DNA of 64,000 bases, from positions 64,001 to 128,000 of IMG/VR virus record IMGVR_UViG_3300035099_000047; one strand, written 5' to 3'. The position numbers and the translations under genes are program-made. This document shows positions 6,165 to 46,407 of this stretch, one piece after another; position 1 is the first letter of the stretch; the number at the start of each line of letters is the position of its first letter. The notes below the pieces were generated by a model. That model ran no database searches and was not told where the DNA came from. It saw only the letters and a list, made by a program, of their open reading frames with translations. Origin of the DNA: a virus.

Positions 6165-8705
6165 TTAAGGCCCAACCGGGGTAGTTGGGCATGGTTGTTT
6201 ACCATCTTCTCTGACTAACGCCGTCACGGGTATGTTCTGAGACCAACGATGTACGGGTACCCCTGCTGGGTCGAGTTTGATTTCCGACCCCGGCAAATAG
6301 CTACACAGTTGGCAATTCTTGCCTCTCTGTTGAGACGGATCCTTGACGTACTTGGCTATGGTCTGCTTGGGCAGTTCGCTGAGGATGTGCAAGGCACTTT
6401 CAATCCAGAGACTTTTCAGCACACACTGAGCCGGATCTGGAGTATGGATGTCTCGACCAGATGCTAAACTGTCCTCGCGGCAATTCCCCACCACCACCCC
6501 AGCAGATAAAACAAAGTTGTGACAAGGATGGTCTATAACCACACAGTACACGTCTTGCTTTTCTTCCAACCATTTAACAGAAATCACTCTGTGGTTTACA
6601 AGGTGTCCATCCTTTCCCTTCTTGCTTTCATAAAAAGGCATCAAGCTATCCCCACACTTCAATTCACAAGATTTGGTCATAGTTCCATCCGACATCATCC
6701 ATTCATGATCTGGAGTACACTTGACTTTTTCACCATTGTCCAACCCCACTTCCATCAAGGGCATGTTCTCCCTAGTTTTTCTAACCTCTCCCTGAGTAAC
6801 TATGAATTCTTTCCACCCTGGATGATAAGAGTAAAACCATTGTTTACCCAAACCTACCAATTCCGCAATTGGGTGGTTTGTCCCATCTACCATTTTGACT
6901 CCAGTATCCCCAGTAAAACAACCAGAACCGCACACCCAACGGACGGGACATTTCATACAATCCTTGCGCTGATAACCACGGTTATCCAACCAAGGAGCTC
7001 TCAATTCCTCATCAATACCAGTAGACAAATCCCCGATTTTGGAATATCCCTCCCGATGGCATGCAAAAATCATACCTTTGCCGTTGACCGAAAGATAACC
7101 TCGACTCGCACCACAATTTCGTACAAACACTCCAGCAGTCAAGGCGAAATTGTGACAATCGTGTTGAATTTGAACGCAATACGTATCGTGGAGCCCTGTT
7201 ACAAATTTGACTGATATCACTTTGTGGTTGGATTGAACCACTTTACAGTATTTGGTATGGGTTACTTGACTCCCTTTGAAACAATCTGTACTCTCCTCAA
7301 GAACTTTCCCATACCATGGCATCAAGCTGTCACCCGGTTGCAATTGATCAGCCCGCTTGTAAGTGCCATCCCTCATCATCCATAGATGATCAGGAGTGCA
7401 CTTGACCCTTTGACCATTGTCCAATTCCACCTCCAACAAAGACCTACCTTCCCCGGTTTTCACTCCAACACCTTTGGTAGATATGATCTCTCCGTTACAA
7501 ACACTGTAAAACCAGTGCTCTTGACCTACAATGGACTCCAAAGTCCTCTCAGTACCATCCAACAAAGACACTTTGGTATCTCCTGAGAAGCACTCACTTG
7601 CACTATGGATACTCCAAAACATGCGTTCAATGCTCTTGTGTACGTTGTGCCAACGTGGAGTCTTATCTGCCTTAGCCCGTTCTATCCACCAATCAGCGGC
7701 ATCGAGGTATTCATCCTCAAATCGGTCCCATGCCTCCTCTTCCTTGATTTCCAATCCCCGGTTTTTCAAAGGACTATCATGGCTCAGGGCCACTGGTTCC
7801 ACGCTTACCCAATTTGCACAACCGTCATCGCACAACTGATTCAAGTAATCAAGCCGCTCCCGGATAGTTTCCACACTGTTAGCTGGAAACGTGCTGCGCA
7901 GGGTGTTGCTGCTAACTAGCCTGGTGCCCTTGAGCAGCTTCAAACCCTTCATTACCTTTTGCCAGCTGCTTCGTCCATTTGCATAGCGGCGCATATGGTC
8001 TTGGCTCTTTTGAGTCCCGTCTATGGAACAGATCAAGCTGTATCCATGATCATTTAGAAAAGCAACTCGTTCGGGAGTGAACAAGGTAGTATTTGTGGTA
8101 ACATGCAGTCCAGGCCTCTGCTTACCCAATCCCAAACAATTTTCACAAACGCTTCCCCCTACCCGACCAGATCCCCCGCAGGACCGACAAACCTGGCCGA
8201 ATTGCTTAGCCAAATGTTCCACATACTCTGTCACTTTGAGTATCAATGGCCAATTGGTCAAGGGCTCCCCCCCAAAGAACCCAACAGTAAAATGCTGGCG
8301 AACGTTTACCAAATCATCAATGGCCCGTTTGGCCATCTCAAAGGTCATTACATCTCCATCGTAGCCCTTATGTGGGTACATGCTCACAAAGCAATACTTG
8401 CACGACAAATTGCACGCATGTGTTGCTTCAAGGACCAAATTGCCCACCTTTGGTTCTGGTGCCCCTCCGGCACGAAACACTGGCTTATAACGTGCCATTA
8501 CATATGGGCTGGGTGGGTGATCCCTGAGTTGCAAGTAATCCTCAAACGAATCCACCTGCAACAATGCCAAACTGTTGCTATCAAATGCAAACTGTTTGTG
8601 TCGCTTTGGAATCTCAATGTAGATAAGCTCCGGTCGTTCATCCTCACGCAAGTCCTGGCAAGGTACACGGGGATTCAACAACCCGTTCAAAATGCGGTAA
8701 GCCAT
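6165..8705 (-). CDS. Radical SAM/SPASM peptide-maturase-like enzyme with two mini-inteins (spliced ~541 aa)
   Basis: CNLSCKYC, FFGGEPL, TTN, SIDG. Spliced SPASM reads CGASRGY...FACH...CMKCPVRWVCGSGC...C. RRE-like N-terminus. Confidence 0.92.
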   Translation of the reverse strand: MAYRILNGLLNPRVPCQDLREDERPELIYIEIPKRHKQFAFDSNSLALLQVDSFEDYLQLRDHPPSPYVMARYKPVFRAGGAPEPKVGNLVLEATHACNLSCKYCFVSMYPHKGYDGDVMTFEMAKRAIDDLVNVRQHFTVGFFGGEPLTNWPLILKVTEYVEHLAKQFGQVCRSCGGSGRVGGSVCENCLGLGKQRPGLHVTTNTTLFTPERVAFLNDHGYSLICSIDGTQKSQDHMRRYANGRSSWQKVMKGLKLLKGTRLVSSNTLRSTFPANSVETIRERLDYLNQLCDDGCANWVSVEPVALSHDSPLKNRGLEIKEEEAWDRFEDEYLDAADWWIERAKADKTPRWHNVHKSIERMFWSIHSASECFSGDTKVSLLDGTERTLESIVGQEHWFYSVCNGEIISTKGVGVKTGEGRSLLEVELDNGQRVKCTPDHLWMMRDGTYKRADQLQPGDSLMPWYGKVLEESTDCFKGSQVTHTKYCKVVQSNHKVISVKFVTGLHDTYCVQIQHDCHNFALTAGVFVRNCGASRGYLSVNGKGMIFACHREGYSKIGDLSTGIDEELRAPWLDNRGYQRKDCMKCPVRWVCGSGCFTGDTGVKMVDGTNHPIAELVGLGKQWFYSYHPGWKEFIVTQGEVRKTRENMPLMEVGLDNGEKVKCTPDHEWMMSDGTMTKSCELKCGDSLMPFYESKKGKDGHLVNHRVISVKWLEEKQDVYCVVIDHPCHNFVLSAGVVVGNCREDSLASGRDIHTPDPAQCVLKSLWIESALHILSELPKQTIAKYVKDPSQQRGKNCQLCSYLPGSEIKLDPAGVPVHRWSQNIPVTALVREDGKQPCPTTPVGP
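6483..6920 (-). mobile_element. Mini-intein (146 aa)
   Basis: CFTGDTGVKMVDG...KCTPDHEW...HNFVLSAGVVVGN/C. Confidence 0.9.
7116..7592 (-). mobile_element. Mini-intein (159 aa)
   Basis: CFSGDTKVSLLDG...KCTPDHLW...HNFALTAGVFVRN/C. Confidence 0.9.
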
Positions 8706-8709
8706 TTTT

Positions 8710-9060
8710 TCAGTCTCCGGTCAATCCTATAGAAATCTCTTCTAAACGTGTAGCCAACCATCCGATGGCCGACAGGTACAATCCATCGGCCAGGGCATAC
8801 TTCGTAACGGGCAACCAATAGTGCAAGGCCAAACCAACCCAGAACGAACAGCACATCATACAGAAGGACCGAGTGCGTTGAGCTACATACAAACTTATCA
8901 GCTGATCTTTTAATCGGGTCGATTTCCAACTTCCCACCCACAGAACGAGCCTGTCAATCACCCAAAGCACTAAATAGCGGACAGGGAACGCAAGACTTGA
9001 TCGCGAGAGTATGACGACAATCCCCAACCCGACGAGCGTTGAGCTAGTGAGATGATCCAT
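8710..9060 (-). CDS. Small membrane protein with CxxCxSFW motif
   Basis: Hydrophobic segments; FCMMCCSFWVG. Confidence 0.6.
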   Translation of the reverse strand: MDHLTSSTLVGLGIVVILSRSSLAFPVRYLVLWVIDRLVLWVGSWKSTRLKDQLISLYVAQRTRSFCMMCCSFWVGLALHYWLPVTKYALADGLYLSAIGWLATRLEEISIGLTGD

Positions 9061-9311
9061 GGTTCTTTATGCTCCAAGGCTTCGGCCTTTTGACAACGCA
9101 GGCAATCATACATTCTAGCGGGTTCATGACCATACCGACTACAAAGAAATACTCGGCCTCCATCAGCCCGACAACAAGGTGATCTAGTGGTTCTACCCGT
9201 GTCAATACGATAGTTGCAATGGAATACCAGTTCCTTCAACCGGTTGCGCAACACTTCGTTTTGAGCAATGTTGAGCCCTGGCAACAGTTCTCGATTACGG
9301 TGAAGTCTCAT
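8970..9311 (-). CDS. Small Cys-containing hypothetical protein
   Basis: ATGA-coupled to the upstream Cys-rich gene. Confidence 0.5.
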   Translation of the reverse strand: MRLHRNRELLPGLNIAQNEVLRNRLKELVFHCNYRIDTGRTTRSPCCRADGGRVFLCSRYGHEPARMYDCLRCQKAEALEHKEPWIISLAQRSSGWGLSSYSRDQVLRSLSAI

Positions 9312-11692
9312 GCCACTATCCCACTAGCGCACCCAACACCTTGACATTGGGATTCGCAAGGCACTGATTCACATACAGTTTCACAAGGTTGTTCCCTTCC
9401 TTCTTCACAACACAACTGGCAACAGAACTCGCAACCTCCCTGCTTATTGGCTACACAACCCGCTTCACAAATGGCCTCACAACCACCTTGGGCTTCGCAG
9501 GCCGCTTGGCACTGAGTTTGACATTTGTCAGTACAGCTAGCGGTGCAACCACTTGTGCAACTGGCTTTGCAAACGCATTCACAACACACTTGACAGCCTC
9601 CCGGTGCACCGGTGCAGCTGGTCTGACAACCAGCAGTGGCTGTGCATTTTATTTGGCACCCAGCCACCATGCAAGGTTCCTGGCAAATAGCCATACACTC
9701 ACTTTGGCACCCTCCAGTGCATCCACTGGTGCAACCTACGATAGCACAAAGCGTTTGACACCCACTGCTTTGACATGGGTTTTGACATATCGTCATGCAA
9801 CCTTCCATGCACTGGCCACCCTGACAACCCACTGTACAATTCTTCTGACAATCGGTTTCGCAGCTTTGACATCCCTCACTCTCGCACTTTGATGCCTCAC
9901 ACCAACTTTCACAATGACCTCCTTCGCAAGATCCCTTCTCGCAAAAATCTTCACAACCCCCTTCACAACTGCCTTTTTCACACCAGCTTTCGCAATAAAT
10001 TGCACATTGAAACTGACAACCACCTACCTCACAATCGTTTTCACAGCTACCAGCTTCACATTGCAGTTCACACCCTGCAGCTTCGCAACCTTCTTCACAC
10101 CCTATCTCGCAACCCTCTTCGCATCCACACACACACGAATCTTGGCAGCATGCTTCGCAATCAGTTTCACAATTGTTTTGGCAAGCACTCTGGCAGTTGA
10201 ACTCACAATCGTTTTGACATCCAGTCGTGCAGAAATCTTCACAATTGCCTTCACAACTGCCTGTACAACCATATTCGCAATCACCTTCACAACCATTTTC
10301 GCAAAATGTTTGACAATTAGCTCCCTCACAAGTATCCTGGCAATAATTCTGACATTTGTTCTCACAACTGCCTGCACACGCTTCTTGGCAGACGAACTCG
10401 CAATCCGTTTGACAGTGAATCTCACACATCAACTCACAATTTGATTCGCAGGAGCCCAAACCTTGACACTTGTCTTCGCAACCCTTCTCACAAAAGCTTT
10501 CACAAGTGACTTGACACCCTTGAGTGCACGTGGTGATGGTTTCCAACCGGTCGCTAGCCCCGGTCAACAACTCCCGAAACCTGCTCCGCATGGAAACGCC
10601 ACTGTAAGAATCCGTTACTTCAATAGCAACTTCTCTCTTGGACATCAACTGCAACTTGCGAACCGGTATCACATGAATGGGTCGCTCGTCGGCCAAGTAC
10701 TGGTCCAACACAGCCATAGCCTCAGCAAAAGGCAAAGCCTCTCCAATACCTGGATACTTTGTTTCAACCTCCTTCAGATAGGAATTGGTTTGGTGGTAAC
10801 AAGTACGAACCCCGGACAACAAAGCATTTGTAGCATGTGCCTTTTCTACTAACACACTCAATAACGAGTTGGTTGAATGATACTGAGTGCTTTCACCCTT
10901 CAAATCAGCATCGGTGCTATGAGAAACCCTTGTAGAATATAACAGGGCATCTGTCGTGTGACTTTCAGTGATTTCACGAGCACTAAGAAAAGCATCTGTT
11001 GTGTGAGATCTGGTTGACTTTTTAAGGTAAGCATCTGTGGTATGTGTTTTGGTTACAGCTAATCCTTTGATATAAGCATCGGTATTATGGCCAATAGTGA
11101 TAACGTCTGGACTGATCACCTCATACTCTATTGCAACCTGGAGGTCATCATATTGTGTTTCCAGTGTTACTTCTGTTGTACCGCTCCACGTCGGATCAGT
11201 TACACAGTTGACCCAATTGCGAATCGAAAGGCCAATGCGATTCCACGCACCACCAGGGATTTCAGAAGGAAGGGGCTTCAGCCCTCCCCCTCCAATGGTC
11301 CACCAACCATATGTTCGGCCATAAATATCTAAACCAACAAGAAGTTGCTGTGCTTCATCTTCCGTATCCTGCCAAAGGTAAACATTTCCTACCCTATAAA
11401 GTTTAGACGAACAAAGTGGGAAGTCGTCAGCAATCGGAGCCCTCACAGCCAACCCAACAACACTGATTGCAGTGACAACACTATTTTTTGGGATACCAAA
11501 CAACTGGCTCCATGTCCCCAATACACGCCACCCTTCGGAGCCAGTTATATTACCCCGACCTTCCAAATCCATGTGCGTGGTAAGGGACCCTTGCGAGAGA
11601 TTACCATTGTACGACCACCCGCCCCTGGCAGTTGGCTCCCAACTCTCAGGGTCGTTTTCCCAACGCCACCATTTGGTTATTCTAATAGCCAC
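9308..11692 (-). CDS. Tail/baseplate-associated protein with HxTDAxL repeats and a ~400-aa Cys-X-X-X repeat C-terminus
   Basis: Long ORF; CxxxC periodicity from TTCTQGCQVTC to the end. Confidence 0.85.
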   Translation of the reverse strand: MAIRITKWWRWENDPESWEPTARGGWSYNGNLSQGSLTTHMDLEGRGNITGSEGWRVLGTWSQLFGIPKNSVVTAISVVGLAVRAPIADDFPLCSSKLYRVGNVYLWQDTEDEAQQLLVGLDIYGRTYGWWTIGGGGLKPLPSEIPGGAWNRIGLSIRNWVNCVTDPTWSGTTEVTLETQYDDLQVAIEYEVISPDVITIGHNTDAYIKGLAVTKTHTTDAYLKKSTRSHTTDAFLSAREITESHTTDALLYSTRVSHSTDADLKGESTQYHSTNSLLSVLVEKAHATNALLSGVRTCYHQTNSYLKEVETKYPGIGEALPFAEAMAVLDQYLADERPIHVIPVRKLQLMSKREVAIEVTDSYSGVSMRSRFRELLTGASDRLETITTCTQGCQVTCESFCEKGCEDKCQGLGSCESNCELMCEIHCQTDCEFVCQEACAGSCENKCQNYCQDTCEGANCQTFCENGCEGDCEYGCTGSCEGNCEDFCTTGCQNDCEFNCQSACQNNCETDCEACCQDSCVCGCEEGCEIGCEEGCEAAGCELQCEAGSCENDCEVGGCQFQCAIYCESWCEKGSCEGGCEDFCEKGSCEGGHCESWCEASKCESEGCQSCETDCQKNCTVGCQGGQCMEGCMTICQNPCQSSGCQTLCAIVGCTSGCTGGCQSECMAICQEPCMVAGCQIKCTATAGCQTSCTGAPGGCQVCCECVCKASCTSGCTASCTDKCQTQCQAACEAQGGCEAICEAGCVANKQGGCEFCCQLCCEEGREQPCETVCESVPCESQCQGVGCASGIVA

Positions 11693-11706
11693 TTACACCA
11701 TCCCCA

Positions 11707-13221
11707 CTAAAAATTAGGGAACACAGCCACTCTTGCGGCTTTGTAAGTGTGTGTACCATTTTTATTCAAACTGTAATCCCCCATTTCGTTAGGTTCGTGC
11801 TTGTACAATTCGGAGACTGAATACTTACCATCTGAACGGTACTTCAACTTCTTATTGATCCCAAACACGGTACCATGCATTTTGTGAAAAGCCAAAGCAT
11901 CAGAGGTGAAAAATCGTATCAAATCATCTGTCCATCCATCATAATAGCTACTCCCCAACAGCTGATTGATAAGGGTCAGATATTCTGTATTGGTAGTGAC
12001 TACATTGTACAGGGCCTTCAATCCGGCTATCAACTCCTCGGTTTCCCCAAATTGTTCCTGTAACATACCCACAATCTGTTTCAAAATAGGCCCCCCTGAT
12101 ACATCCCCAGAAGCCTCCGCATCCTTTATGCGAATAATCAAAGGTAACAAATCATACAACTGGACCCGGGGCCAACGGCCTAGATAGGCTGCAGTGCGAT
12201 GGTACCTGCGTACCTCCCCCTTCAAGTCCGCATCGGCGGTATGCTTTTTCAATTGAAACTTTTGCAAAAGGGCGTCAGCACTGTGAACCTTAGTAATACT
12301 CCAAACCAAATAGCTGCTTGAAAAATGATAATTGGTAACTTCGCCCTTCAAAACTGCATTTGTACAGTGTAATTTTCGACCACCTAATATCAAGGCATCA
12401 GTTGTATGCAATAGAGAAATGGTTTCAGTAGGTGATGCCCAACTCAACCGGCGTGGCATTGCCCAAAGATCAAAGCGCGTGGCTGGATTGTAAAGCGTCC
12501 AGATTTCCGCCGCCGAAAGGGCACGCCCGTAAACCCGCACGTCACGCACCAGACCTCGCCAGAACATCTCGTACGAGCCGTAGTTCAAGGCCCCGACGAA
12601 TCCGTAGTTGCTGGACCACGTATCCGTGGGCATTTGCGCGAGCGTCTTTGAGTTTTTCAACCGTCCGTCGACGTACAGCGACCAGGCGGAATTGTCGAGA
12701 ACGGCCGCAACGTGGTGCCAAACCCCGTCGTTATGCGCGCTCGTCGCAACCAGATTAGTGTCCCATACGCTTATGCCGAGAGCGCCCGGCGGCTGCCACC
12801 GGTCGGTGTTGCCAGCACCAATAATGACCGCGTAGTGTTGGGATGTTACCCCGTAAGAAAACGCCCCGCGGATGTACTCCGACGGACATTCCGTGTAGTT
12901 GACCCAGAGCGAAATCGTTCGCGGCGATGCCCCGAGGGGGAGGCGGGTATCGGGAAAGCGGAACTGATAACTGCCGTCGAATTCCGGCACGAAGCCAAAC
13001 GTGGGATCCGCGTGCCATTTTGCCACCTCCGGCACCATGCTTATGTCAACTGCCCTGCCGTGATTGTCATAAACAATCTCCGGCGCGACACTGCCCGTGC
13101 ATGCCGAGAGCGGCCACCAGGCAATAAGACTGCGTGATTGCAGCGATTCTTGCCGGACTTGCGGTATTCTTGGAGACAACAGGTTGGCGCGGGCCATTGG
13201 GCGGTCCGAGATGACTCCCAT
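11707..13221 (-). CDS. LamG/concanavalin-like domain protein with HxTDA repeats and a C-terminal baseplate-wedge (P2 gpI/T4 gp7-like) domain
   Basis: RTISLWV...DGVWHHVAAV...LYVDG...GLVRDVRVYGRALSAAEI (LamG); YDLLPLIIRIKD...GGPILKQI. Confidence 0.8.
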   Translation of the reverse strand: MGVISDRPMARANLLSPRIPQVRQESLQSRSLIAWWPLSACTGSVAPEIVYDNHGRAVDISMVPEVAKWHADPTFGFVPEFDGSYQFRFPDTRLPLGASPRTISLWVNYTECPSEYIRGAFSYGVTSQHYAVIIGAGNTDRWQPPGALGISVWDTNLVATSAHNDGVWHHVAAVLDNSAWSLYVDGRLKNSKTLAQMPTDTWSSNYGFVGALNYGSYEMFWRGLVRDVRVYGRALSAAEIWTLYNPATRFDLWAMPRRLSWASPTETISLLHTTDALILGGRKLHCTNAVLKGEVTNYHFSSSYLVWSITKVHSADALLQKFQLKKHTADADLKGEVRRYHRTAAYLGRWPRVQLYDLLPLIIRIKDAEASGDVSGGPILKQIVGMLQEQFGETEELIAGLKALYNVVTTNTEYLTLINQLLGSSYYDGWTDDLIRFFTSDALAFHKMHGTVFGINKKLKYRSDGKYSVSELYKHEPNEMGDYSLNKNGTHTYKAARVAVFPNF

Positions 13222-13239
13222 CCATTCCTCCTACCAAAT

Positions 13240-13746
13240 TCAAACGACGTCTTCAGCCAGTGGTACCAAGGTAATGCGATGTGAATCGTCATTGCTTACC
13301 AAAGCCTGTCCCGACTTATTGATGACTACAGGGCAACCATAACGGGCAGGGGGACAAAACTCGAAGACCTCGGTTTGGACCACAGTAGCAGCATCTGCTG
13401 TGAGCACCAGGCAGCCAATAAGCAAAAGCTGTTGCTTCCATTCATCTTCTTCCCCAGCCTTGTAAGGGGAATCCACACCGGTGACTCCACCAGGAAAGGT
13501 TGTGTTATCCCACGAGGCTGCCCAATAAATCTCAATCACGTTGCCAGCCACTGGGGCAACAGCCAGGTTCAATTCGACAGTGACCGCCCAGCGCGGGGCG
13601 AACCGCCCGTTGGCATCCGCCAGATCGCCTTTCTGACCCATCCGCCCGGCCCCGTTGGCCAAGCCAGCCAGGGTGATCGCGTAGTCTCCTCCCGTGGCCT
13701 TCCAAACCTTTGCAGTTCCTTGTTTAACCAGTATTTCTGTAGACAT
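13240..13746 (-). CDS. Putative virion structural protein
   Basis: Beta-rich ORF within the tail-appendage operon. Confidence 0.6.
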   Translation of the reverse strand: MSTEILVKQGTAKVWKATGGDYAITLAGLANGAGRMGQKGDLADANGRFAPRWAVTVELNLAVAPVAGNVIEIYWAASWDNTTFPGGVTGVDSPYKAGEEDEWKQQLLLIGCLVLTADAATVVQTEVFEFCPPARYGCPVVINKSGQALVSNDDSHRITLVPLAEDVV

Positions 13747-13781
13747 AGCTCAAACCCAAGGGTTAAAAGTTGAAAGTTGGT

Positions 13782-14210
13782 TCACAAAGAAAGCTTGATA
13801 ATCCCGCTAGCACTCCACTGCAACACAAAGTTTTGGGCCTTCCGGCTCTTCACCATTCCAAAGCCTATGTGACCTATCAGAGGTGAGTCTGCTGGGGTGG
13901 TAACCAGCCGGTACAATACAGCATGAGCGGGGGACACAGTCACCACTGGCCAAATAACATCATCTGCGTCAAACACGCAAGTACCAGCAACTTTGTCCAA
14001 AGTAAAACTACCATTCCTCAACCGTACCCCTCCCGCTGTATAATTGGTACCTGTCACTTCATCGGTTACTATGTCCGACCAATAAACTTGGTTTTTGTAA
14101 TCTGGTATGTATTTGTCACTGAGCAGTGCACACTTGATTATGTTGTTGACCAGCGATATTTGACCATTGGCCATCGCTTTCAAATAATTCAAGAACAATC
14201 CGCAGGTCAT
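13782..14210 (-). CDS. Putative phage tail structural protein
   Basis: IKCALL...EVTGTNYTAGG...FDADDVIW...FVLQW motif common in tail modules; start at MTCGLF. Confidence 0.7.
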   Translation of the reverse strand: MTCGLFLNYLKAMANGQISLVNNIIKCALLSDKYIPDYKNQVYWSDIVTDEVTGTNYTAGGVRLRNGSFTLDKVAGTCVFDADDVIWPVVTVSPAHAVLYRLVTTPADSPLIGHIGFGMVKSRKAQNFVLQWSASGIIKLSL

Positions 14211-14221
14211 AGCTTCCCCTT

Positions 14222-15370
14222 TCACACCTGTTGCTGTTGTTGGCATCGACCTTGACAACCATACTCACAGGCATTCTGACATTCGGTCTCACAAGCAGCT
14301 TGGCATCCTATAGCACAAGCTGTAGTGCAAGTGAGTTGTTGACCTGCTTGGCACTTTTGCTCACAGGCGTAAGCACATCCCGGTATTTGATTTCCTGATT
14401 GACATTTTTGTTCACATTTGGTAGTACAACCCCCTGTTTGAGCTCCCGTTTGACATGATTTTTCACATTGATTTTCACACGAAGTTTCACACGAAGCCTC
14501 ACACCCTCGACGAGGGACTTGATAACTAACTTGGCACACCGTGTTGCAACCAGGGGACTGTCGATGGCTTTGACAAGAAACCTGGCAAGATCTTACACAA
14601 CCTGGCACCTGCCCACTGGCCTCGCAATTAGATTGACAAACACTATCACATCCCAAAAATTGAAGCTTGGATTGGCATTTGGTTTCACATTGCCCCTGAC
14701 AACCCCCTTCGCAGTGGGTTTCACACCTAGCCGTGCAGTTACGTGCCTGATTACCTTGTTGACAACTGACTTCACAAATCTGTTGGCAATCGTATTCACA
14801 AGCTACTTGACATTTATCAGTACACCCCGGGGTTTGGTACCCTTGAGTACAACTCAATTCGCAACTTGTACCACAGCCTGCAGTTTGACTCCCTGATTGA
14901 CAAGTCACCTCACAAGTGTCAGAACAACCAGGGGTTTGACTGCCTTTTTGACAGGTGGTTTGACAAGTGTCTGAGCAGCCGACTGATTGACTCCCTGATT
15001 GGCAAGAAACTTGGCAACGGTCTTGGCAACCTGATTGGCAAGTTGTTTCACACTTCGTGGAGCACCCTTGAGCTTGGTGACCTGCTTGGCAATGAAGTTC
15101 ACACAGGGTCTGACACCCAGATTGACACACCAATTGACAATGAGATTCACAACTGCTTTGGCAAGTGACTTCGCAAGTGGTACCACATCCGGCTACCTGG
15201 TTCCCTGCTTGGCATACGTTTTCGCACAGGTTTTGACAATTAGCTTGGCAAGTCTGTTCGCACTTCGTTTGGCACCCCGCTTGACACCTCAATTCACAAG
15301 CTGAAGTGCAACCAGCGGCTTGATACCCAGCTTGGCAACCCACTTGGCAAGTTTCAGTGCAACCTGGCAT
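14222..15370 (-). CDS. All-Cys-X-X-X repeat protein (SCIFF-like modules)
   Basis: About 75 Cys in 382 aa by manual count; modules separated by GxQxxG linkers. Confidence 0.85.
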   Translation of the reverse strand: MPGCTETCQVGCQAGYQAAGCTSACELRCQAGCQTKCEQTCQANCQNLCENVCQAGNQVAGCGTTCEVTCQSSCESHCQLVCQSGCQTLCELHCQAGHQAQGCSTKCETTCQSGCQDRCQVSCQSGSQSVGCSDTCQTTCQKGSQTPGCSDTCEVTCQSGSQTAGCGTSCELSCTQGYQTPGCTDKCQVACEYDCQQICEVSCQQGNQARNCTARCETHCEGGCQGQCETKCQSKLQFLGCDSVCQSNCEASGQVPGCVRSCQVSCQSHRQSPGCNTVCQVSYQVPRRGCEASCETSCENQCEKSCQTGAQTGGCTTKCEQKCQSGNQIPGCAYACEQKCQAGQQLTCTTACAIGCQAACETECQNACEYGCQGRCQQQQQV

Positions 15371-15386
15371 TTTCAGCTCCTACCTT

Positions 15387-18300
15387 TTAGACAGAAGGCT
15401 GAGCGTAAACCTGACAACCTGCAACTTGACAGTTTAACTGACAACCAGTTGCTTCACAAGCAATCTGACATTGTAGTTGACACACAGCCTCGCAAACTGA
15501 TTGACACCGCTCGGAGCACCCAACCACTTGGGCTATAGGTTCACAACCAGATTGGCAACTGCCTCCCTGGCAAAGCGTAGTACAACCACTTACTTGATTC
15601 CAAGCTTCACAAGCAGTATGGCAATCGGTTTCTCTACGAGTTTCACAAGCTGCAGCTTGACAAGTGAGTTCACAAAGCGCCTGGCAATCATATTGACAGA
15701 CAATTTTACATGGAATGTCGCCAGTTCCACTCTCCAAACCCCCAACTTGACAAGCTACTTGACATTGGCTTATGCAATCCCTAAACTGCTTCCATGTTTC
15801 ACAATAGTTTACACAAGAGAACTGGTTTTGAGTCTGACAAGTCACAACTTGACAAGAACCCTGATAAGAGGTGAGGCAGCCAGTGTAGTCAGTTTGAGAT
15901 TGGCTCTGACAAGTTCCACTTTGACACACGGGTTGGCACCAGGATTGACAAGTTGTTTCACAAGGCTCTCCTGTAGGATATTGTGCAACCCACAAACTCC
16001 CTCCATATTGATAGTACGTTTGACAATGTTTCTGACAAGTTGTTTGGCAGTCCAGTTGACAGCTGCCCATGCACTCACCTACTTGGGCCTCCCCTTGACA
16101 AAACCTTTGACATACATTTTCACATTCATACTGGCAATCAGTCATACAAGTAGTTTCACAACTTGTACTAACACAACTTGAGTATTGGCTCAGGGTCTGG
16201 CAAGGAGCCATTTGGCACTTGGTCTGGCAAGTCCGAGAACATCCCAGTTGGGTTCGAGTTTCACAAGAATTAGCTTGACAATTATATTGACAACTTTGCT
16301 GACAACGTGAACCGCAAGGCGAAACTTGAACATCACCACAACCCAATGCTGCCCAAAGTTCCTGACAATCGGATTCACAATGGGTTTCACAATAAGTGGT
16401 ACACGGACCTTCGTAATGAGTTTGGCAATCATCTTGACAGTGGTATTCACAATGGGAAGCGCAACCCGTTTCGCATTCAGTTTCACACGAGGCTTGGCAT
16501 TTAGTGGTGCACCCCGTGGTTTTGGGGGTTTGATACCGAACTTCTAATGTCAAGTTATTGTATCCTATGCGGGCGTGCCCACCAGTCTGGCTCAAATGGA
16601 ACAAGCTTTGTAGCATAAATTCCACTGAATCGGTAGCTCCCCCTAACCCTTCAGAAATCCCGTGGATGCTTCCGGGATTCATGTAAAGCCAATCATTTTC
16701 TACTCCAAAGACCCTCCTACCCCACCACAAAATTGATGGAATAGCTGTATTACAATTCACTCCGGCTGCCCCATATTGAACAAAATCCTGAACTCCTACG
16801 TTATCCCATATCAAGCATCGAGTATTCATGCCAATAAATCGAACCCCTACCACCGTGGCATTGTCTGGTATACCAAATATCTCCTTCCAAGAGCCTACCA
16901 ATCTCCAGGTAATTGTAGTCTCAAATGGCATGCGGTATGGTTTGTCATCCCTGTACAATTCACTGTAAATGTAGCCAGAGGGGTCCCAACCCCCAATACG
17001 GGTACTCAGTTCCCCAGCGAGATACCATTTCCCGGATCCACTGGTTTCCCTAGGATCAGTTGTAAAATTCCAGGAACGCTCCGCTCGCAATGTAATCTTG
17101 GGTATATCCGCTTGATTAGCTGAGGTACAACCAGTAGTGCAATCAGAATGGCAACCTACCGTACAATCTGTAGTACATCCACCAGTACAACTTAGCTGAC
17201 AAGTACCGCCCTCACAAGTCTGAGTACCTGCTGTGCAACCACCAGTACATCCACCAGTACACCAGCTAGTACACCCACTTGTGCAAGGGTAATCCAAGTG
17301 CTGAATCTGGCAACCAGTAGTGCAAGCTTCCTGACAAATCAATTGGCAAGTGGTCTCGCATATCGTGGGCTCCAACATATGGGTAGTCACTGACCATTGT
17401 TCTGCTATTTGGTCCCCCAACTTCTTGCGGCCTACTCGTTTACTCAACAGCAAATAGAACACCTGACTGCGATGGGGTATTTTCAATGAGTTGTGTGCAT
17501 AGACATACAGATGGGGTACCAACGGGCTCCAACCAATTAGCTGCTCCCCCGTAGGGGCATATCGGTAGTCCCGATCGTACAACATCAAGTGGGTAATCTC
17601 ACCCAAATTCACATCCGGAGCGCTGAATACAATCTGACCGTAATTGCGAAATGCACTAACGATGGTGCCTGGCACGCTGTTCGGATCTATACCTGCTTCA
17701 ACTAAGAAGTCCAGGGCTTCATCCAAACTCACCCGGGCCCAAGCATTATGGGGTTCCCGATGATAACCACTTGCAGTCTTGGGCTCATTTACTGGGAGTT
17801 CTCCATACCAACCGCAAAAGCTGCGACTCATAGCCACAAAGGTACCACTAGTGCTACTGCCTGGATGCCAGCTAGTGGTAAAGTTAACAGTTGGACTGGT
17901 ACCAGAAATGAAATCCACCTCTTGCGATGAAGGACTAAAAGTCAAGGGTGGATAGTCATACCACAAGGGCATCACGGTATAGTGGCCCGGTGGCACAACC
18001 ATATTTGCCAAGCCTTCTCTGTTCGTAACCCCCCAGTAAGCAACAGGATGACCATTGGAATCTTCCCCATAAATCACCACCTCAACATTGGCTACCTGAG
18101 CTCCGGTCATGACCACTGAAGGGGAGGCATGTGGATCAGAGGTACTTGGAGGGGTAGAATGAGGTAACTCCATTGTCAGGTTGCAAGGACCATAAGTCGT
18201 GGTAATCGTTTGGCTGATTGTTTGACAAGTTTCAGCCGTGGTCAGGCACCCCTTGGTCTCATCTGGGTTTGGGCTACCCCACATGCCTTGATAACCAGTT

Positions 18301-19499
18301 GGCGGAGATCCGCATTCTGCTGCACTAGAACAAGTGCCCCCTGGTGGAGTGCAACCAGATAGTTGAGCGGGGGTTTGGCAGGCTAATTCACAAGCGTCCT
18401 GACAAGAGTACTGAATGCTGGTTTGGCAATGGGCTTGACAGTAACCCTTGCAAGTTTCCTCATAACTTTGACAAGTACCTTGACAGTGTTGCTGACACTG
18501 CTGCCGACAGGAACTTTGACAAGAGCTTTGGCAGGTATCCTGACAATAACTTTGACATGGGTCTTCGCAACCCTGTTCACAAGCCTCTTGGCAAAAGAAC
18601 ATGCAAGCGTTTTGACATTTATGTTCACACCGAGCTTGGCATACTGGTTCACAGGAGCTTTTGCAACTTAATTCGCACAAAGCAGCGCATTTGGTCTGAC
18701 AACTTAGCTGACATGCTCCAGTGCAAGTAAGAGTGAGTGATTCATCATCTGCTATGAGATTGGATGGTTCTTCGTCGAACAAAGCAACCATTCTGCTACC
18801 ATCCGCCCCATCGCAGGTTTCCTTAACCCAGTCGGGGTAGTCTTCAGTGCATATCGGTACCGGCGGCAACACCTGAATTGGCACCACCTCTTGCAAATCG
18901 TGAACCAAAGACAATGCATCTGGATAGCTAAGCTGACCAGGCACCAGCCCGGAATGGTTTGTACATCGTAGATCAACAGGACCCTCCCATGGCAACACAG
19001 ACTCTAACACTGCCCCCATACGGAGGCCATATGGAATACTGCTAGTAAACAACACTCGAGCAGCACGGTAAGGGTGGCTTAGGGACTGACTGGCCGAATA
19101 ATCCACCGTTTCATTCAAACTACCTTTGTACAACTCCACTGGGTTGTAATTACCCAGTCCCTTCAACTTCATCATCCTGATCCAGCTTAACACCAATCCC
19201 TTGATCTTGTAGCTGTTCACCAACTCCTTGGCATACTCCCTTTGGTGGAACAGAGGTAGTTCCTGGGGGCTCTCACTACCCAATGCCTTGGTCAACAAGG
19301 CCAATATCAGAGAGCTAGTGGATTCCAAATTGATCAATCCCCGCAGACCTTCGATCAAGCCTGCAGTGGAATCTATTTGTTCTTGGATCGCAGCCAGAAT
19401 CTGCTGCAAGATAGGGCCACCGGGGAGATCGCCAGAGGCATCAGAGTCCTTCTGGCGTAGAACCAGGGGTAGCAGATCATATGCACCGATCTTGGTCAT
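15387..19499 (-). CDS. Baseplate wedge (gpI/gp7-like) protein fused to three Cys-X-X-X repeat blocks and beta-rich domains
   Basis: Directly follows baseplate J/gp6; N-terminal YDLLPLVLRQKD...YKIKG; CxxxC blocks. Confidence 0.85.
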   Translation of the reverse strand: MTKIGAYDLLPLVLRQKDSDASGDLPGGPILQQILAAIQEQIDSTAGLIEGLRGLINLESTSSLILALLTKALGSESPQELPLFHQREYAKELVNSYKIKGLVLSWIRMMKLKGLGNYNPVELYKGSLNETVDYSASQSLSHPYRAARVLFTSSIPYGLRMGAVLESVLPWEGPVDLRCTNHSGLVPGQLSYPDALSLVHDLQEVVPIQVLPPVPICTEDYPDWVKETCDGADGSRMVALFDEEPSNLIADDESLTLTCTGACQLSCQTKCAALCELSCKSSCEPVCQARCEHKCQNACMFFCQEACEQGCEDPCQSYCQDTCQSSCQSSCRQQCQQHCQGTCQSYEETCKGYCQAHCQTSIQYSCQDACELACQTPAQLSGCTPPGGTCSSAAECGSPPTGYQGMWGSPNPDETKGCLTTAETCQTISQTITTTYGPCNLTMELPHSTPPSTSDPHASPSVVMTGAQVANVEVVIYGEDSNGHPVAYWGVTNREGLANMVVPPGHYTVMPLWYDYPPLTFSPSSQEVDFISGTSPTVNFTTSWHPGSSTSGTFVAMSRSFCGWYGELPVNEPKTASGYHREPHNAWARVSLDEALDFLVEAGIDPNSVPGTIVSAFRNYGQIVFSAPDVNLGEITHLMLYDRDYRYAPTGEQLIGWSPLVPHLYVYAHNSLKIPHRSQVFYLLLSKRVGRKKLGDQIAEQWSVTTHMLEPTICETTCQLICQEACTTGCQIQHLDYPCTSGCTSWCTGGCTGGCTAGTQTCEGGTCQLSCTGGCTTDCTVGCHSDCTTGCTSANQADIPKITLRAERSWNFTTDPRETSGSGKWYLAGELSTRIGGWDPSGYIYSELYRDDKPYRMPFETTITWRLVGSWKEIFGIPDNATVVGVRFIGMNTRCLIWDNVGVQDFVQYGAAGVNCNTAIPSILWWGRRVFGVENDWLYMNPGSIHGISEGLGGATDSVEFMLQSLFHLSQTGGHARIGYNNLTLEVRYQTPKTTGCTTKCQASCETECETGCASHCEYHCQDDCQTHYEGPCTTYCETHCESDCQELWAALGCGDVQVSPCGSRCQQSCQYNCQANSCETRTQLGCSRTCQTKCQMAPCQTLSQYSSCVSTSCETTCMTDCQYECENVCQRFCQGEAQVGECMGSCQLDCQTTCQKHCQTYYQYGGSLWVAQYPTGEPCETTCQSWCQPVCQSGTCQSQSQTDYTGCLTSYQGSCQVVTCQTQNQFSCVNYCETWKQFRDCISQCQVACQVGGLESGTGDIPCKIVCQYDCQALCELTCQAAACETRRETDCHTACEAWNQVSGCTTLCQGGSCQSGCEPIAQVVGCSERCQSVCEAVCQLQCQIACEATGCQLNCQVAGCQVYAQPSV

Positions 19500-19508
19500 G
19501 ATCTGCTC

Positions 19509-21518
19509 CTAGTCACTAAGCAGATCTACTATAAAAGTCCCCGGTACGACCAACTGGTTCTTTTCTACTGGTATGTCCCCAGCCACCACGCTCAGCAACT
19601 GCGTATAGTTGGTGGCAATGCTAGTTTCAGCACTAGGGGCATTGGTAAACGTAAACTCATAGGCTCCGGTTTCATAATCAATCACAGCCACCTTGGTATC
19701 ATCTTTATTTCCAACCAAACGACCATGACCGTCATCTGTTACCACTTGAACTCCATCAGTAAAAGCCACAGTGTTTTTGATCAACGGAGGGTAAGTGAGT
19801 TTGCCCGTGAAGGTGCGGGTAATGCCATTAGTCGTAGCAATATCAGTTTCATTGCGTAGGTACTGCAATGGGTAGCGGTACTCAATTTTAATCTCAGCAT
19901 TCAGTGGTACCGCTTCTCTCAAGGTGAAATTCAAATCCCCAGTGGCATAATCCACCGTGTTCTCAGCCGTAGGATCCACATCCCCAATCAAACGCCCATC
20001 TCCGTTGTCTGTAATCACCAAAGTGTCAGCCTTAATGGTAATGCTACTAGGGCGGGGCACTTGCTGAGTGGTGTAATCAAACTGAGTAGTATGTCCGTCT
20101 GACAATCCAATCAATTCAGTTTTCTTGTAGGTAGCGGTCACAAGCCGTACCAAACTGTGCTCCACCCCGCTAGAGGCCTGTATAGTGCTGTAAAGCTTGC
20201 TCATGCGTACAGCCGTGCCAGGCTGATTACTTGGGTTGTTTAACAACGCCGTTAGGGCATAGTTGACATTGGTCAAAGTTTCGCTATTGCTTAGAAGGCC
20301 GTTTGGCACCACCCCTACATCCAGATCCAAGTACACTATGTTACCGTCCAACACATCCACATCTACGGTAATGATACGCACTGCTCCAGTGCCGTTGTTG
20401 TTAAAATAGGCAGATACTGCGTTTTTCAAGCCTTCGCTGGGAGGTACTATGTTACCCAATTCATTTCGTGCCCACAAGTATAAGTCTACAAGGTTGCTCT
20501 CTGGTACATTTTGATGAAGTTGTGCCTTGGCGTGAGACGGAGCACCGTAAATGGGATCTTTGAAGGTAGAAGCCAAGGTATCAAAATCAGATTCTGTAAC
20601 TGCGCGGCCGTTGGCCACCACCGATTTCGGGGCCCAAAACTTAGCGTGGTCAATTGTTTCTTTTTCTTCACCACCGCTACCACGTTCATTGTTGTACAGA
20701 GCCACGTCTACTGTTTGAATTGGCATGGTACCACTCAAGTTACCTGGTACCGATACATCAATATCCCCAATAGGCACATTGCCAACCACTCCGCCTCCTA
20801 TACGATAACTACATGAAATGGTAGCATTCTTGGTAGGTATTTGACCGCTGGTGCCGTCCCCAAATTTCACGTATCCATAGTCATCCACATCGGTGCGTAC
20901 ACTGTAACTTTGGTCCACTCCACTGCTGTAAACCAACGATTCTACTTCGTCCCAAGCGAAGCCATCTACAGTTACACTCAAGCTACCATCAATCAACGGA
21001 GTGCTGGAGAGCTTGAACTCTTGAAATGCGGTACCATCGCTAGTGAATTCATCAGTAACAGTTAGCCCTTGGACAAAAGTAAGATCCGCTGTCAAGTGAC
21101 CAGCCGGTATGGTTTGGTCCGTTAGACTTTCAAACTTGACTCCCGTTACACTGCTGATTTCCGTGTGTGCAGGTATCACGGTGTCATAGGTTTGAATAGA
21201 TGGAAGAGTAGCCGTGAGAAGGACTGAGGCGCTAGTAGCTGGCCGAAGGTTATACCCTATGAGCCTGCAGAGCAAAATCACACTTTCTCGATCTTTGGCT
21301 GTAGGGAGGAATTGTTCGTTGCAATAAGTGTCTATCATGAAGGAAAGGGAATCAAACGTAAATGCAACTAGCTCCATTAGGCAGGTCCCAATTGAGCTTT
21401 CAGTAAAGTCTTTCCATGTATTGGGAAACCTGGCCCGAATGTTGGCCTGAAGCGCAGCAAGTATCGTGGAATAGTCTTGATTTGTATAGTCTATTGCAGG
21501 AGTAGTGGTCATCCTCAC
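19509..21518 (-). CDS. Baseplate wedge protein (T4 gp6 / P2 gpJ-like)
   Basis: IDYTNQDY...WKDFTESSIG...FLPTA...FGDGTSGQIP...GGEEKETID...RAVTESDF. Confidence 0.92.
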   Translation of the reverse strand: MRMTTTPAIDYTNQDYSTILAALQANIRARFPNTWKDFTESSIGTCLMELVAFTFDSLSFMIDTYCNEQFLPTAKDRESVILLCRLIGYNLRPATSASVLLTATLPSIQTYDTVIPAHTEISSVTGVKFESLTDQTIPAGHLTADLTFVQGLTVTDEFTSDGTAFQEFKLSSTPLIDGSLSVTVDGFAWDEVESLVYSSGVDQSYSVRTDVDDYGYVKFGDGTSGQIPTKNATISCSYRIGGGVVGNVPIGDIDVSVPGNLSGTMPIQTVDVALYNNERGSGGEEKETIDHAKFWAPKSVVANGRAVTESDFDTLASTFKDPIYGAPSHAKAQLHQNVPESNLVDLYLWARNELGNIVPPSEGLKNAVSAYFNNNGTGAVRIITVDVDVLDGNIVYLDLDVGVVPNGLLSNSETLTNVNYALTALLNNPSNQPGTAVRMSKLYSTIQASSGVEHSLVRLVTATYKKTELIGLSDGHTTQFDYTTQQVPRPSSITIKADTLVITDNGDGRLIGDVDPTAENTVDYATGDLNFTLREAVPLNAEIKIEYRYPLQYLRNETDIATTNGITRTFTGKLTYPPLIKNTVAFTDGVQVVTDDGHGRLVGNKDDTKVAVIDYETGAYEFTFTNAPSAETSIATNYTQLLSVVAGDIPVEKNQLVVPGTFIVDLLSD

Positions 21519-21925
21519 GCTCCAACTATGAACGAGGTTGTTTGCGGTTCAGAACGAGGTTGGTAGCGGTCACGATACACAACGCTGACCAACACCTTAC
21601 TACCATTTTCTTCCGGTATGGAAGAGTTGACTGATATGACTTCCAATCGAGGGTCCCACTTGGGCACCACTCGCTGAACAATAGCAGTCAAATCGCCCTG
21701 CACCCGGGCCCCGGCAGGTTCAAACAGTAGTTCCATAATGTTACTACCAAACTCACACAGCATCACCCGCTCACCTAGCATAGTCATGATTATCATTTCC
21801 ACAGAAGAGGCGAGCACATCATGATCATTTTTGATTTCAAAGTAACTCTTAAGATTCGATCCCCATGGCCAAGCCATTCCACCGTAATTGAACGAATTGG
21901 CCAAGGGAGTTGGGAGCGTAGACAT
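21515..21925 (-). CDS. Baseplate wedge/sheath initiator (gp25-like)
   Basis: TMLGERVMLCEFGS..LLFEP..WDPRL. Confidence 0.9.
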   Translation of the reverse strand: MSTLPTPLANSFNYGGMAWPWGSNLKSYFEIKNDHDVLASSVEMIIMTMLGERVMLCEFGSNIMELLFEPAGARVQGDLTAIVQRVVPKWDPRLEVISVNSSIPEENGSKVLVSVVYRDRYQPRSEPQTTSFIVGA

Positions 21926-45125: not shown

Positions 45126-45126
45126 A

Positions 45127-46407
45127 TCAATCCAGTCTTTTCTTTGCCACATAAGTCTGATAACCCTCCCACAAACCTGGATCCGTTCTCAACAGCTTTT
45201 CGGCCTTTGGCCACCTTCCACCAATCACGTGGCTAGCATATAGATAGCTAAAATCGACCGTAGTAAGTATGGCCGGTTCCCCCAACCGGAACCGCTTGTT
45301 TCCCAAGGGACCCCTAGCATAACGGTAGGCCGCTTCCGGATCTTTGGCCATAGCAGGTTCCCCCATAGGAAACGGCCCATGAAGCGTCTCCGATGCATAC
45401 CCCAAGGCTATCTTAGCGTTCTTGGACATGGCTGGTTCACCAGCTGGGAATGGGCCAACGATCTCGGAGTAATCAAGAGAACTCTTACCGTTCCTGGCAA
45501 TTTCGGGCTCCATCTCAGGCCAACCCTCGGATCCTATGAATTTACGTATGTATTCTATTAAGTGCTCACTTTTAGCAATGGCCGGTTCCCCCAGTGGAAA
45601 TCGTCTGCCTAGCACTTCATGAGCATACCTATAGGCAGCATCACCATCCTTGGCAATGGCCTCTTCACCTTCAGGCCATTCCCCTCCCACTATTCGCTTA
45701 GCATAACCAAATGCCTGATCACCACTTGGGTTAGGTGGAGGGGTCAGCAAACGATTCAACAAAGGCCCAGGCTCCATAGGCTGGTCCTGTACGTCCATCA
45801 CTTGACTGTAATCAGGCGTGTATTGCATGAAAGGAACTCCGTCCTTCAACACAACGTAGATGGCTCCAAAATCCTCCAAATAGCTGCGAGCCCAACTAGA
45901 ATTAGCTCCACGAGTACACCACCTAGTGCCCTCCCCTAAAATCCCCAAGCTCCTTGGATCAGTAACACGCAAGGTGATATAAGGGCCGTCAACCTTATTC
46001 ACTTCAACCCCTTCTAATCCAGATATCTTGCTTGCCACCTCCGCAGGCACCCGCAGCACCTCTGGCCTTTCTTGTTGCACAGCCCGTTGCAAATCACCGA
46101 AAGTAGGGTAACGGTGAATATCACGATTCAACTGGCTAGAAGGCTTGCGTTTTAGTTCAGTGAAATGTTGCAAATACTCTTTGACTTTTTCCGCGTCTTC
46201 AGGCAGAATGACTTGATGAGTTACCCATTGCCTCAAAATCCAACTGTCGTATTGTTTATCAGGTGTTGGATCTGCATCGTCAACCAACCGAGTAATGGTA
46301 CCCACCGGCAAATCCAATACCCTGTGCGCTTTCTCCAACTGACTAGACTGTATGCCTTCTTGGAGCATTTGCCGAACCAAACGCGGGTATGGGATTCTAT
46401 AGGTCAT
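45127..46407 (-). CDS. Putative internal protein: GTxWCT domain plus ~23-aa helical repeats
   Basis: DPTPDKQYDSWI...GEGTRWCT...; repeats YA..(V/L)..(W/F)P.GEPA(I/M)AK. Confidence 0.75.
   Translation of the reverse strand: MTYRIPYPRLVRQMLQEGIQSSQLEKAHRVLDLPVGTITRLVDDADPTPDKQYDSWILRQWVTHQVILPEDAEKVKEYLQHFTELKRKPSSQLNRDIHRYPTFGDLQRAVQQERPEVLRVPAEVASKISGLEGVEVNKVDGPYITLRVTDPRSLGILGEGTRWCTRGANSSWARSYLEDFGAIYVVLKDGVPFMQYTPDYSQVMDVQDQPMEPGPLLNRLLTPPPNPSGDQAFGYAKRIVGGEWPEGEEAIAKDGDAAYRYAHEVLGRRFPLGEPAIAKSEHLIEYIRKFIGSEGWPEMEPEIARNGKSSLDYSEIVGPFPAGEPAMSKNAKIALGYASETLHGPFPMGEPAMAKDPEAAYRYARGPLGNKRFRLGEPAILTTVDFSYLYASHVIGGRWPKAEKLLRTDPGLWEGYQTYVAKKRLD

Follow-up and report, generated by a model that had tools for sequence, protein, structure and literature searches.

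The 64,000-nucleotide stretch of viral DNA analyzed here (bases 64001–128000 of the linear 172,227-bp IMG/VR virus record IMGVR_UViG_3300035099_000047, from a sediment metagenome; hereafter, the window) encodes, within a myovirus baseplate module, three proteins (1370, 382, and 794 amino acids, aa; p1370, p382, and p794) with long tracts in which every fourth residue is Cys and, downstream of them, an intein-interrupted radical S-adenosylmethionine (SAM)/SPASM enzyme (hereafter, rSAM). With a probability of roughly 0.6, we consider that the spliced enzyme, which is CteB-like in its sequence and predicted fold, makes Cys-to-side-chain thioethers along these Cys tracts, or ladders. The tracts are very probably the substrate of the enzyme and, given that they are, the bond is reasonably likely to be a thioether; it is quite likely that the ladder proteins are located in the virion. 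A wider proposition, that many phages install a thioether at nearly every tetrad (a 'ranthionine ladder') using rSAMs of the type that matures peptides made on the ribosome and modified after translation (RiPPs), here acting on leaderless baseplate or fiber proteins of 400–3000 aa and, in the window, through a splicing-gated maturase, is offered tentatively.

Cysteine ladders in the baseplate module

As a preliminary description of this DNA had stated, the three proteins are co-oriented and built on a period of four: p1370, p382, and p794 contain 126, 75, and 102 Cys, with 82, 59, and 64 gaps of exactly 4 between consecutive Cys, respectively, for totals of 303 Cys and 205 Cys-x3-Cys steps (Table 1). 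This periodic Cys content is far above chance; the Cys content of neighboring proteins is 0.6–1.9%, and the three are the sole proteins of this kind in the genome. Between the tracts of p1370 lie a middle region and a domain (aa 802–989) also found at the N-terminus of p794 (aa 1–181), and the repeat of p382, which has no other domain, is interrupted by linkers of the G-x-Q-x-x-G type. The residue following Cys (x1) in the window tracts is Gln (38%), Glu (33%), or Thr (14%; 85% together), with x3 being mostly small, and across 1441 units from 37 proteins of the enzyme clade described below, x1 is Glu in 46%, Gln in 34%, and Thr in 11%. Between p794 and its ortholog P0095 (contig L288), identity is 93% at Cys, 65% at x1, 45% at x2, 36% at x3, and 26% in the linkers, and because of this pattern, the ladder tracts appear to be under graded protein-level constraint (C > x1 > x2 > x3) rather than to be simple DNA repeats. 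An ESM Atlas feature search returned no usable match.

The genes from the Cys-ladder block through the rSAM gene all lie on the minus strand, as do the myovirus genes of the record, which include those for a tail sheath (PHROG 23, 1e-76), tape measure, major head protein, and head protease. The baseplate J-like protein is the upstream anchor of the module, and many related loci have a counterpart with 39–51% identity upstream of their Cys-ladder genes. With gp25 and J preceding it, p1370 occupies a P2 gpI-type position, and the N-terminus of p1370 (aa 1–149) is homologous to aa 352–498 of p504 (E 3.8e-21), whose C-terminus matches PF09684 (Tail_P2_I) weakly (0.0033). Among homologs of the p1370 N-terminus in related loci, 7/14 aligned domains match PF09684, the best at 1.8e-8. 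The full order of gp25, baseplate J, a Tail_P2_I-like domain plus ladder, rSAM, and a p564-like small protein is present in ~15 loci.

The radical SAM/SPASM enzyme and its inteins

The rSAM gene, the sole one in the genome, lies ~0.6 kb downstream of the ladder genes. The preliminary description had identified its product as a radical SAM/SPASM enzyme, and this identification is borne out by a CX3CX2C motif and, after removal of two inteins, by the full SPASM Cys set. The seven SPASM Cys (C...C-H...CxxCx5Cx3C...C) are invariant in 30 homologs and are intact in the window enzyme only with both inteins removed; the spliced 541-aa extein is collinear with the intein-less homolog P0005 (71% identity), to which it aligns without gaps through C370, C388, C422, C425, C431, C435, and C454. 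Intein boundaries were set by alignment to intein-free homologs. The inteins match PF14890 (91 bits vs 35.8) and TIGR01445 (62 bits), begin with C-F-S/T-G-D-T, and end in V-R-N in one case and V-G-N in the other, each directly followed by Cys; these are the features of class 1 Hint-fold inteins, and the penultimate His is missing in both. Since one intein has the first SPASM Cys as its +1 residue and the other has the final Cys of CxxCx5Cx3C, neither auxiliary iron-sulfur (Fe-S) cluster site would be complete prior to splicing.

Inteins recur at Fe-S ligand sites across the rSAM clade: larger inteins occupy both SPASM sites in L017 (~470 aa each) and the first site in L026, and in L021 the intein lies inside the CX3CX2C motif. 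In the genome under study, at least 7 related intein copies are present in 5 genes; one belongs to a 767-aa open reading frame (ORF; window 42852–45188) of the virion module that carries an intein with HNH, a copy of the same intein family as those of the rSAM.

In comparisons of sequence and predicted fold, the nearest solved structure is CteB. A profile of 30 clade members matched CteB (5wgg) with an E of 1.2e-80, the next-best chain being at 3e-35. An AlphaFold2 model of the homolog P0005 (pLDDT confidence score 88.6) had a Foldseek template-modeling (TM) score of 0.80 on the CteB target and aligned to it over 400 residues (VIA-align; Z 34.4, root-mean-square deviation 2.6, model 24–472 to chain 1–450); the second structural neighbor of the model was anSME (Z ~27). 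The N-terminal domain of the model is beta-rich with one helix, and a D-x-N-S motif is shared in the comparison with the SCIFF maturases. The insert with two CxxCxGxG motifs (Table 1) is limited to the closest homologs (P0005–P0009), is not in P0012 or P0021, and might help to hold unfolded substrate.

The five best-scoring NCBIfam families for the window enzyme were the nif11-like, PapB, QhpD, SCIFF, and ScfB-related (not_ScfB) maturases, all below their cutoffs; PapB, QhpD, and SCIFF are named thioether/ranthipeptide maturases, and the nif11-like family and the ScfB-related orphan family have no stated chemistry. The window enzyme scored 129 bits and nine intein-free clade homologs 134–196 bits on the SCIFF maturase family (TIGR03974; cutoff 425), with corresponding scores of 132 and 134–195 on the PapB family (NF047865; cutoff 340) and 62 and 46–102 on TIGR04115 (cutoff 350), for which the viral locus L204 served as a positive control; clade homologs reached 42–61 bits on the CrpC family (TIGR04463; cutoff 525). 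The earlier assignment to the CteB/SCIFF-type maturases thus holds for the profile and the fold and fails at the TIGR03974 cutoff. A complex prediction that combined a clade enzyme, SAM, three 4Fe-4S clusters, and a 66-residue piece of its cognate tract scored 0.00, which speaks neither way.

Pairing of ladders with radical SAM genes

The enzyme clade (P0005–P0037) was recovered by homolog searches at E values of 1e-181 to 1e-31, with SCIFF maturases at ~1e-16. Loci from IMG/VR and assembly contigs, including a few duplicates, were scored for ORFs lying upstream in the same orientation and having six or more Cys-x3-Cys steps. Such ladder ORFs were present upstream in 25/32 clade loci vs 2/49 loci with other rSAMs found with the same probe (Fisher p 1.7e-12), and they reach large sizes in the clade (1143 aa with 179 Cys in L003; 2679 aa in L004). 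Four of the seven clade negatives had no more than ~3 kb of upstream DNA. The clade copies found in bacterial metagenome-assembled genomes (Acidobacteriota, Planctomycetota, and others) all had giant ladders (4/4).

For the reverse survey, seven C-[QE] tetrads were written as a degenerate DNA sequence, (TGY SAR N6)x6 TGY, which matched at least 118 viral stretches. Among genuine, diverse ladders in searchable viral records, an rSAM gene was directly adjoining in 9/9 informative cases, a tenth ladder lying at a contig end, and no genuine ladder without an rSAM was found among the informative records inspected. The rSAMs of other lineages recovered in this way were PapB-like below cutoff, PapB being the best family for several of the other phage ladder-associated rSAMs, and one, L204, was a true member of TIGR04115 (485.6 bits). 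Adjacency of ladder and rSAM spans at least three enzyme lineages, with targets from 86 aa to ~2950 aa. Comparative genomics gives strong support to the pairing of ladder and rSAM: the co-occurrence that the preliminary description had suggested as a check was found in both directions, and in the informative records the ladder without an enzyme that it had named as a refutation was not encountered.

One apparent refutation was rejected: of 12 near-complete records that matched the pattern, 8 lacked an rSAM, and their matches were simple 12-nt tandem repeats or out of frame, with 1–6 distinct units. Perfect 12-nt tandem repeats that read C-E-x-x in one frame, in short ORFs, occur in L099, L136, L137, L152, and many of L082–L161; these imitate Cys ladders and are a trap for pattern surveys.

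Searches by other routes were less productive. Megablast against GenBank phages gave no match, a GenBank phage protein search gave only distant rSAMs (24–32% identity) in unannotated human-gut phage records, and a single-protein scan of IMG/VR gave no match, whereas an alignment-based scan did yield loci.

Proposed mechanism and competing explanations

Under the thioether interpretation, p1370, p382, and p794 would be late-operon proteins of the distal baseplate module of a myovirus, presenting ~300 Cys in C-[E/Q/T]-x-[small] tetrads. The rSAM precursor would first splice out its two mini-inteins, which interrupt ligands of both auxiliary Fe-S clusters, and once spliced, the enzyme would work on the tracts in the cytoplasm of the host, either ahead of tail assembly or in the course of it. 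A 5'-deoxyadenosyl radical would take a hydrogen from C-gamma or C-beta of the Glu, Gln, or Thr side chain beside a Cys; the resulting radical would be captured by a nearby Cys thiolate on an auxiliary cluster, and small thioether rings would line the tract as a ladder. The acceptor paired with a given Cys may lie at i+1, i+5, or i-3. Ranthipeptide-synthase-like chemistry is likeliest, and Glu, Gln, and Thr at x1 fit what is known of ranthionine acceptors, which are Thr in CteA and Asp/Glu in QhpC and PapA. The product may be a stiff appendage resistant to reduction and to proteases.

Several points weigh against this interpretation. Because no curated equivalog cutoff is reached, chemistry cannot be transferred to the window enzyme by family membership, and the thioether is proposed from likeness in sequence and fold. 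Alignment to the SCIFF maturases with hhalign covers only the core (77–441) and leaves the N-terminal domain of the phage enzyme unaligned to their RiPP recognition element, a leader-binding winged helix; the structural alignment nonetheless begins at CteB residue 1, and the recognition element that the preliminary description had seen in this enzyme is at most putative. The tracts have no leader, p382 beginning directly with the repeat, and the AlphaFold2 model of p382, predicted to be helical, is of low confidence (pLDDT 54). In L025, L026, and L028, clade loci for which 10 kb of DNA upstream is available, the adjacent large protein has no more than short clusters of Cys. Modifying ~300 sites per protein set at the cost of one SAM each would be a real kinetic burden, and to our knowledge this number is far beyond that of any characterized rSAM maturase. 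Location in the virion is argued from Tail_P2_I homology and gene order, and the N-terminus of p1370 itself has no PHROG match and (aa 1–200) no Pfam match at E <= 0.01; the baseplate-wedge domain that had been ascribed to it is recognizable by way of its homologs and not directly.

It is unlikely that the rSAM acts on the tracts with some other chemistry, such as formation of C-alpha sactionines, intermolecular links between fiber subunits, anSME-type Cys oxidation, or the assembly or insertion of Fe-S or metal centers. Such chemistry would be in keeping with the shortfall at every equivalog cutoff, with the scores that anSME, sactisynthase, and cyclophane families also obtain, with the rank of anSME as second structural neighbor (Z ~27), and with the placement of acceptor-like Glu/Gln at i+1 or i+5, unlike that of PapA (C-x3-D) or CrpA (C-x-x-Q/D). 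CteB, however, stands far above the other structures (E 1e-80 vs 3e-35; Z 34 vs 27), 3/5 of the top-scoring families form Cys-to-side-chain thioethers, and the preference at x1 agrees with the known ranthionine acceptors. A more improbable explanation is that the ladders are self-sufficient through disulfides or metal ions, like the metal-binding motifs in other phage fibers, and that the rSAM modifies something else or only a few sites. The count of sites, which seems implausibly high for a slow enzyme, the lack of a leader peptide, and the low-confidence prediction of helical tracts with Cys on one face would all suit such proteins; yet adjacency to rSAMs of at least three lineages over targets from 86 aa to ~2950 aa is difficult to account for if the tract is not the target, and the informative records yielded no genuine ladder without an rSAM.

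Thioether formation on virion proteins must also be set against the idea that the Cys-rich proteins are polyprotein precursors cleaved into SCIFF-like peptides, a phage-borne RiPP factory rather than parts of the virion. The layout of p382, with repeated modules and regular linkers between them, and the occurrence in bacteria of small CxxxC peptides with rSAMs are what a precursor of this kind would lead one to expect, but the ladders are fused to Tail_P2_I-like baseplate domains, the gp25-J-I order recurs in many loci, and scans with NCBIfam, Pfam, and PHROGs found no protease or exporter in the block, making this explanation very improbable.

Comparison with known systems

CteB/CteA (SCIFF, thermocellin; PDB 5WGG/5WHY) is likened to the window system by an enzyme of nearest profile and fold, with three [4Fe-4S] sites, and by a core with a short CxxxC run in which Gln, Lys, or Thr follows Cys. 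CteA is, however, a ~45-aa peptide with a leader bound by the recognition element and one demonstrated crosslink, from Cys32 to Thr (PMC8326336), whereas the phage targets are leaderless baseplate proteins of 382–1370 aa with up to 126 Cys. In PapB/PapA (freyrasin, NF047865), each of the tandem C-x3-acceptor motifs forms a small ring through a thioether, as proposed for the ladder, but PapA is a short peptide with six repeats and an Asp acceptor at i+4, the position occupied in the phage tract by the next Cys. QhpD, among the top families for the phage enzyme, forms Cys-Asp/Glu thioethers in a protein subunit (PMC8326336); the QhpD/QhpC system of quinohemoprotein amine dehydrogenase (TIGR03906) thus places side-chain thioethers in a structural subunit, with the differences that there are three crosslinks in a subunit of ~80–110 aa and that the phage enzymes score 130–190 vs a cutoff of 453. 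An experimental precedent for an SPASM rSAM acting on a repeat-rich Cys protein instead of a peptide is given by CrpC of Methanococcus voltae, which installs ranthionine links on CrpA, a 28.8-kDa Cys-repeat protein with C-X-X-Q/D motifs (PMC13692751, Dieter et al. 2026). CrpC/CrpA differs in its family (TIGR04463), its 17-residue repeat and 47-residue leader-like N-terminus, and its archaeal, cellular setting with a suggested role in metal handling.

The CXXX-repeat rSAM target system, defined in silico (TIGR04115 maturase; TIGR04114, TIGR04117, and TIGR04118 targets; PF27846), follows the same logic of an rSAM/SPASM enzyme and Cys at every fourth residue, and we found no characterization of its chemistry in the literature. 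Its hallmark, period-4 Cys beside an rSAM/SPASM gene, is present in the window (205 gaps of 4, with conserved adjacency), but its targets are short and the phage ladder proteins giant. Tract 1 of p1370 falls below the target cutoffs (TIGR04117, 25.4 bits vs 50; TIGR04114, 12.8 vs 20), p382 scores 9.1 bits on these target models, and p794 has no match; the target of L204 scores 22.2 bits on TIGR04114, and PF27846 has a faint match on the L004 giant protein. Calling the window a 'new system', as the preliminary description did, was therefore an overstatement, since CXXX-repeat rSAM targets are already in NCBIfam, L204 belongs to TIGR04115, and protein-sized ranthionine substrates were shown in 2026. 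The system of the window is most plausibly a variant, in a phage and on giant proteins, of the in silico CXXX-repeat/ranthipeptide systems; it lies outside every curated equivalog tested and would, by analogy, act most like CteB, PapB, or CrpC on a CXXX-repeat target. What the window adds is the ladder size (303 Cys), an enzyme split by inteins, and a DnaJ-like insert with a double CxxCxGxG.

We found no literature on such rSAM/Cys-rich systems in phages or on tail proteins; one paper mentions a cyanophage rSAM, which is unrelated (PMC12801897).

Covalent crosslinks are known to harden a phage particle in the isopeptide chainmail of HK97, which forms autocatalytically in the capsid. The ladder would share the idea of hardening, with a dedicated radical enzyme working here on baseplate or fiber proteins. 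If true, the proposal would describe the first covalent crosslinks put into phage tail proteins by an enzyme, and radical SAM chemistry of the RiPP type would reach beyond peptides to assemblies in the megadalton range, each protein bearing hundreds of sites. RiPP enzymology would also gain highly iterative maturases that need no leader, and phage biology an additional factor that determines how stable particles are, and perhaps which hosts they infect, where habitats are reducing, as in sediments.

Neighboring genes and additional observations

Table 1. Features of the ladder/rSAM region, with coordinates in the window
Feature	Coordinates	Strand	Remarks
gp25-like gene	21515–21925		upstream of baseplate J-like gene
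Baseplate J-like wedge protein, 669 aa	19509..21518	-	NCBIfam TIGR02243 3.4e-28; PHROG 219 baseplate wedge 3.8e-40
p1370, 1370 aa	15387..19499	-	Tail_P2_I-like N-terminus, three Cys-x3 tracts, two non-repeat domains
p1370 Cys tract 1, aa 259–374	18378..18725	-	28 Cys
p1370 Cys tract 2, aa 739–791			
p1370 Cys tract 3, aa 997–1362	15414..16511	-	
p382, 382 aa	14222..15370	-	almost wholly C-[QET]-x-x units
p158	13782..14258	-	conserved phage protein, no assigned function; PHROG 644, 2.5e-22
p168	13240..13746	-	no family match (NCBIfam, Pfam, PHROG)
p504, 504 aa	11707..13221	-	LamG-type lectin domain, H-x-x-D-A-x-L repeats, C-terminal second Tail_P2_I-like domain
p794, 794 aa	9308..11692	-	N-terminal domain as p1370 aa 802–989, H-T-T-D-A repeats, Cys tract
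p794 Cys tract, 400 aa, aa 389–788	9329–10528	-	
113-aa ORF	8970..9311	-	several Cys; ORF start overlaps p794 stop
116-aa ORF	8710..9060	-	hydrophobic, CxxC..FWVG motif; homologous ORFs directly before rSAM in L017 and L004
Radical SAM/SPASM maturase precursor, 846 aa (541 aa spliced)	6165..8705	-	PF04055 58.9 bits vs gathering 29.5
CX3CX2C radical SAM cluster motif CNLSCKYC, aa 98–105	8391..8414	-	matches invariant C96, C100, and C103 of the 30-homolog alignment A1
Insert, aa 171–199	8109..8195	-	29 residues within the radical SAM core; CxxCxGxG twice, resembling a DnaJ-type zinc finger
Mini-intein 1, 159 aa, residues 372–530	7116..7592	-	+1 Cys = first SPASM Cys (E-C-G-A)
Mini-intein 2, 146 aa, residues 596–741	6483..6920	-	+1 Cys = last Cys of CxxCx5Cx3C
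p564, 564 aa	4461..6155	-	small conserved protein split by HNH-bearing intein; intein and HNH matches

The record is 78% complete by CheckV. A second sediment study contains 29% of its sampled words, and no RNA run is listed among the sequencing runs containing them. Scans of the window found no Rfam family and only chance-level promoter and terminator signals.

The region downstream of baseplate J had been described as one block; it is co-oriented, and it also holds p158, p168, and p504, with two small ORFs standing before the rSAM gene. Besides its match to PF09684, p504 matches PF13385 (2.5e-21) and the virion structural protein family PHROG 8510 (1.1e-12), and it shares (aa 268–347) with p794 (aa 213–313) repeats of 13–14 residues with the pattern H-T/S-T-D-A-x-L, of which p794 has five copies. 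The two small ORFs, of 113 and 116 aa, overlap each other between p794 and the rSAM gene (8710–9311) and have no Pfam match; the 113-aa ORF is conserved in L017 and L004 (tblastx, 43% over 76–86 aa), and both may be candidate accessory factors of the ladder/rSAM system.

The gene downstream of the rSAM, p564, had been taken for a tail-collar protein, which neither Pfam nor PHROGs bears out: with NCBIfam, Pfam, and PHROGs, it has only intein and HNH matches and PHROG 5417 (function unassigned), with no collar or fiber family, and its intein-free homolog (L288:4719–5276) has no Pfam match. By tblastn, ~15 loci have a conserved counterpart of its extein downstream of their rSAM.

In distant relatives, the rSAM gene is followed by a gene of glycosyltransferase family 9 (GT9; heptosyltransferase-like), as in L001 (11463–12503), L002 (11550–12515), L003 (6884–7681), and the P0032 contig, and in L004 by methyltransferases, a glycosyltransferase of family 1 (GT1), and a sulfotransferase; no GT9 gene is present in the genome under study. 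These neighbors hint at further modification of Thr/Ser-rich tracts in the relatives. Between the ladder gene and the rSAM in L003 (4042–5175) and L002 (8820–9998) lies a ~380-aa protein with 16 Cys and a weak SPASM match (E 0.007), which may be a second, degenerate Fe-S partner. On a viral contig with a non-clade rSAM, a 96-aa ORF with 21 Cys (17 gaps of 4) is located ~8 kb downstream (L037, 19060–19347) and may be a small-peptide version of the system.

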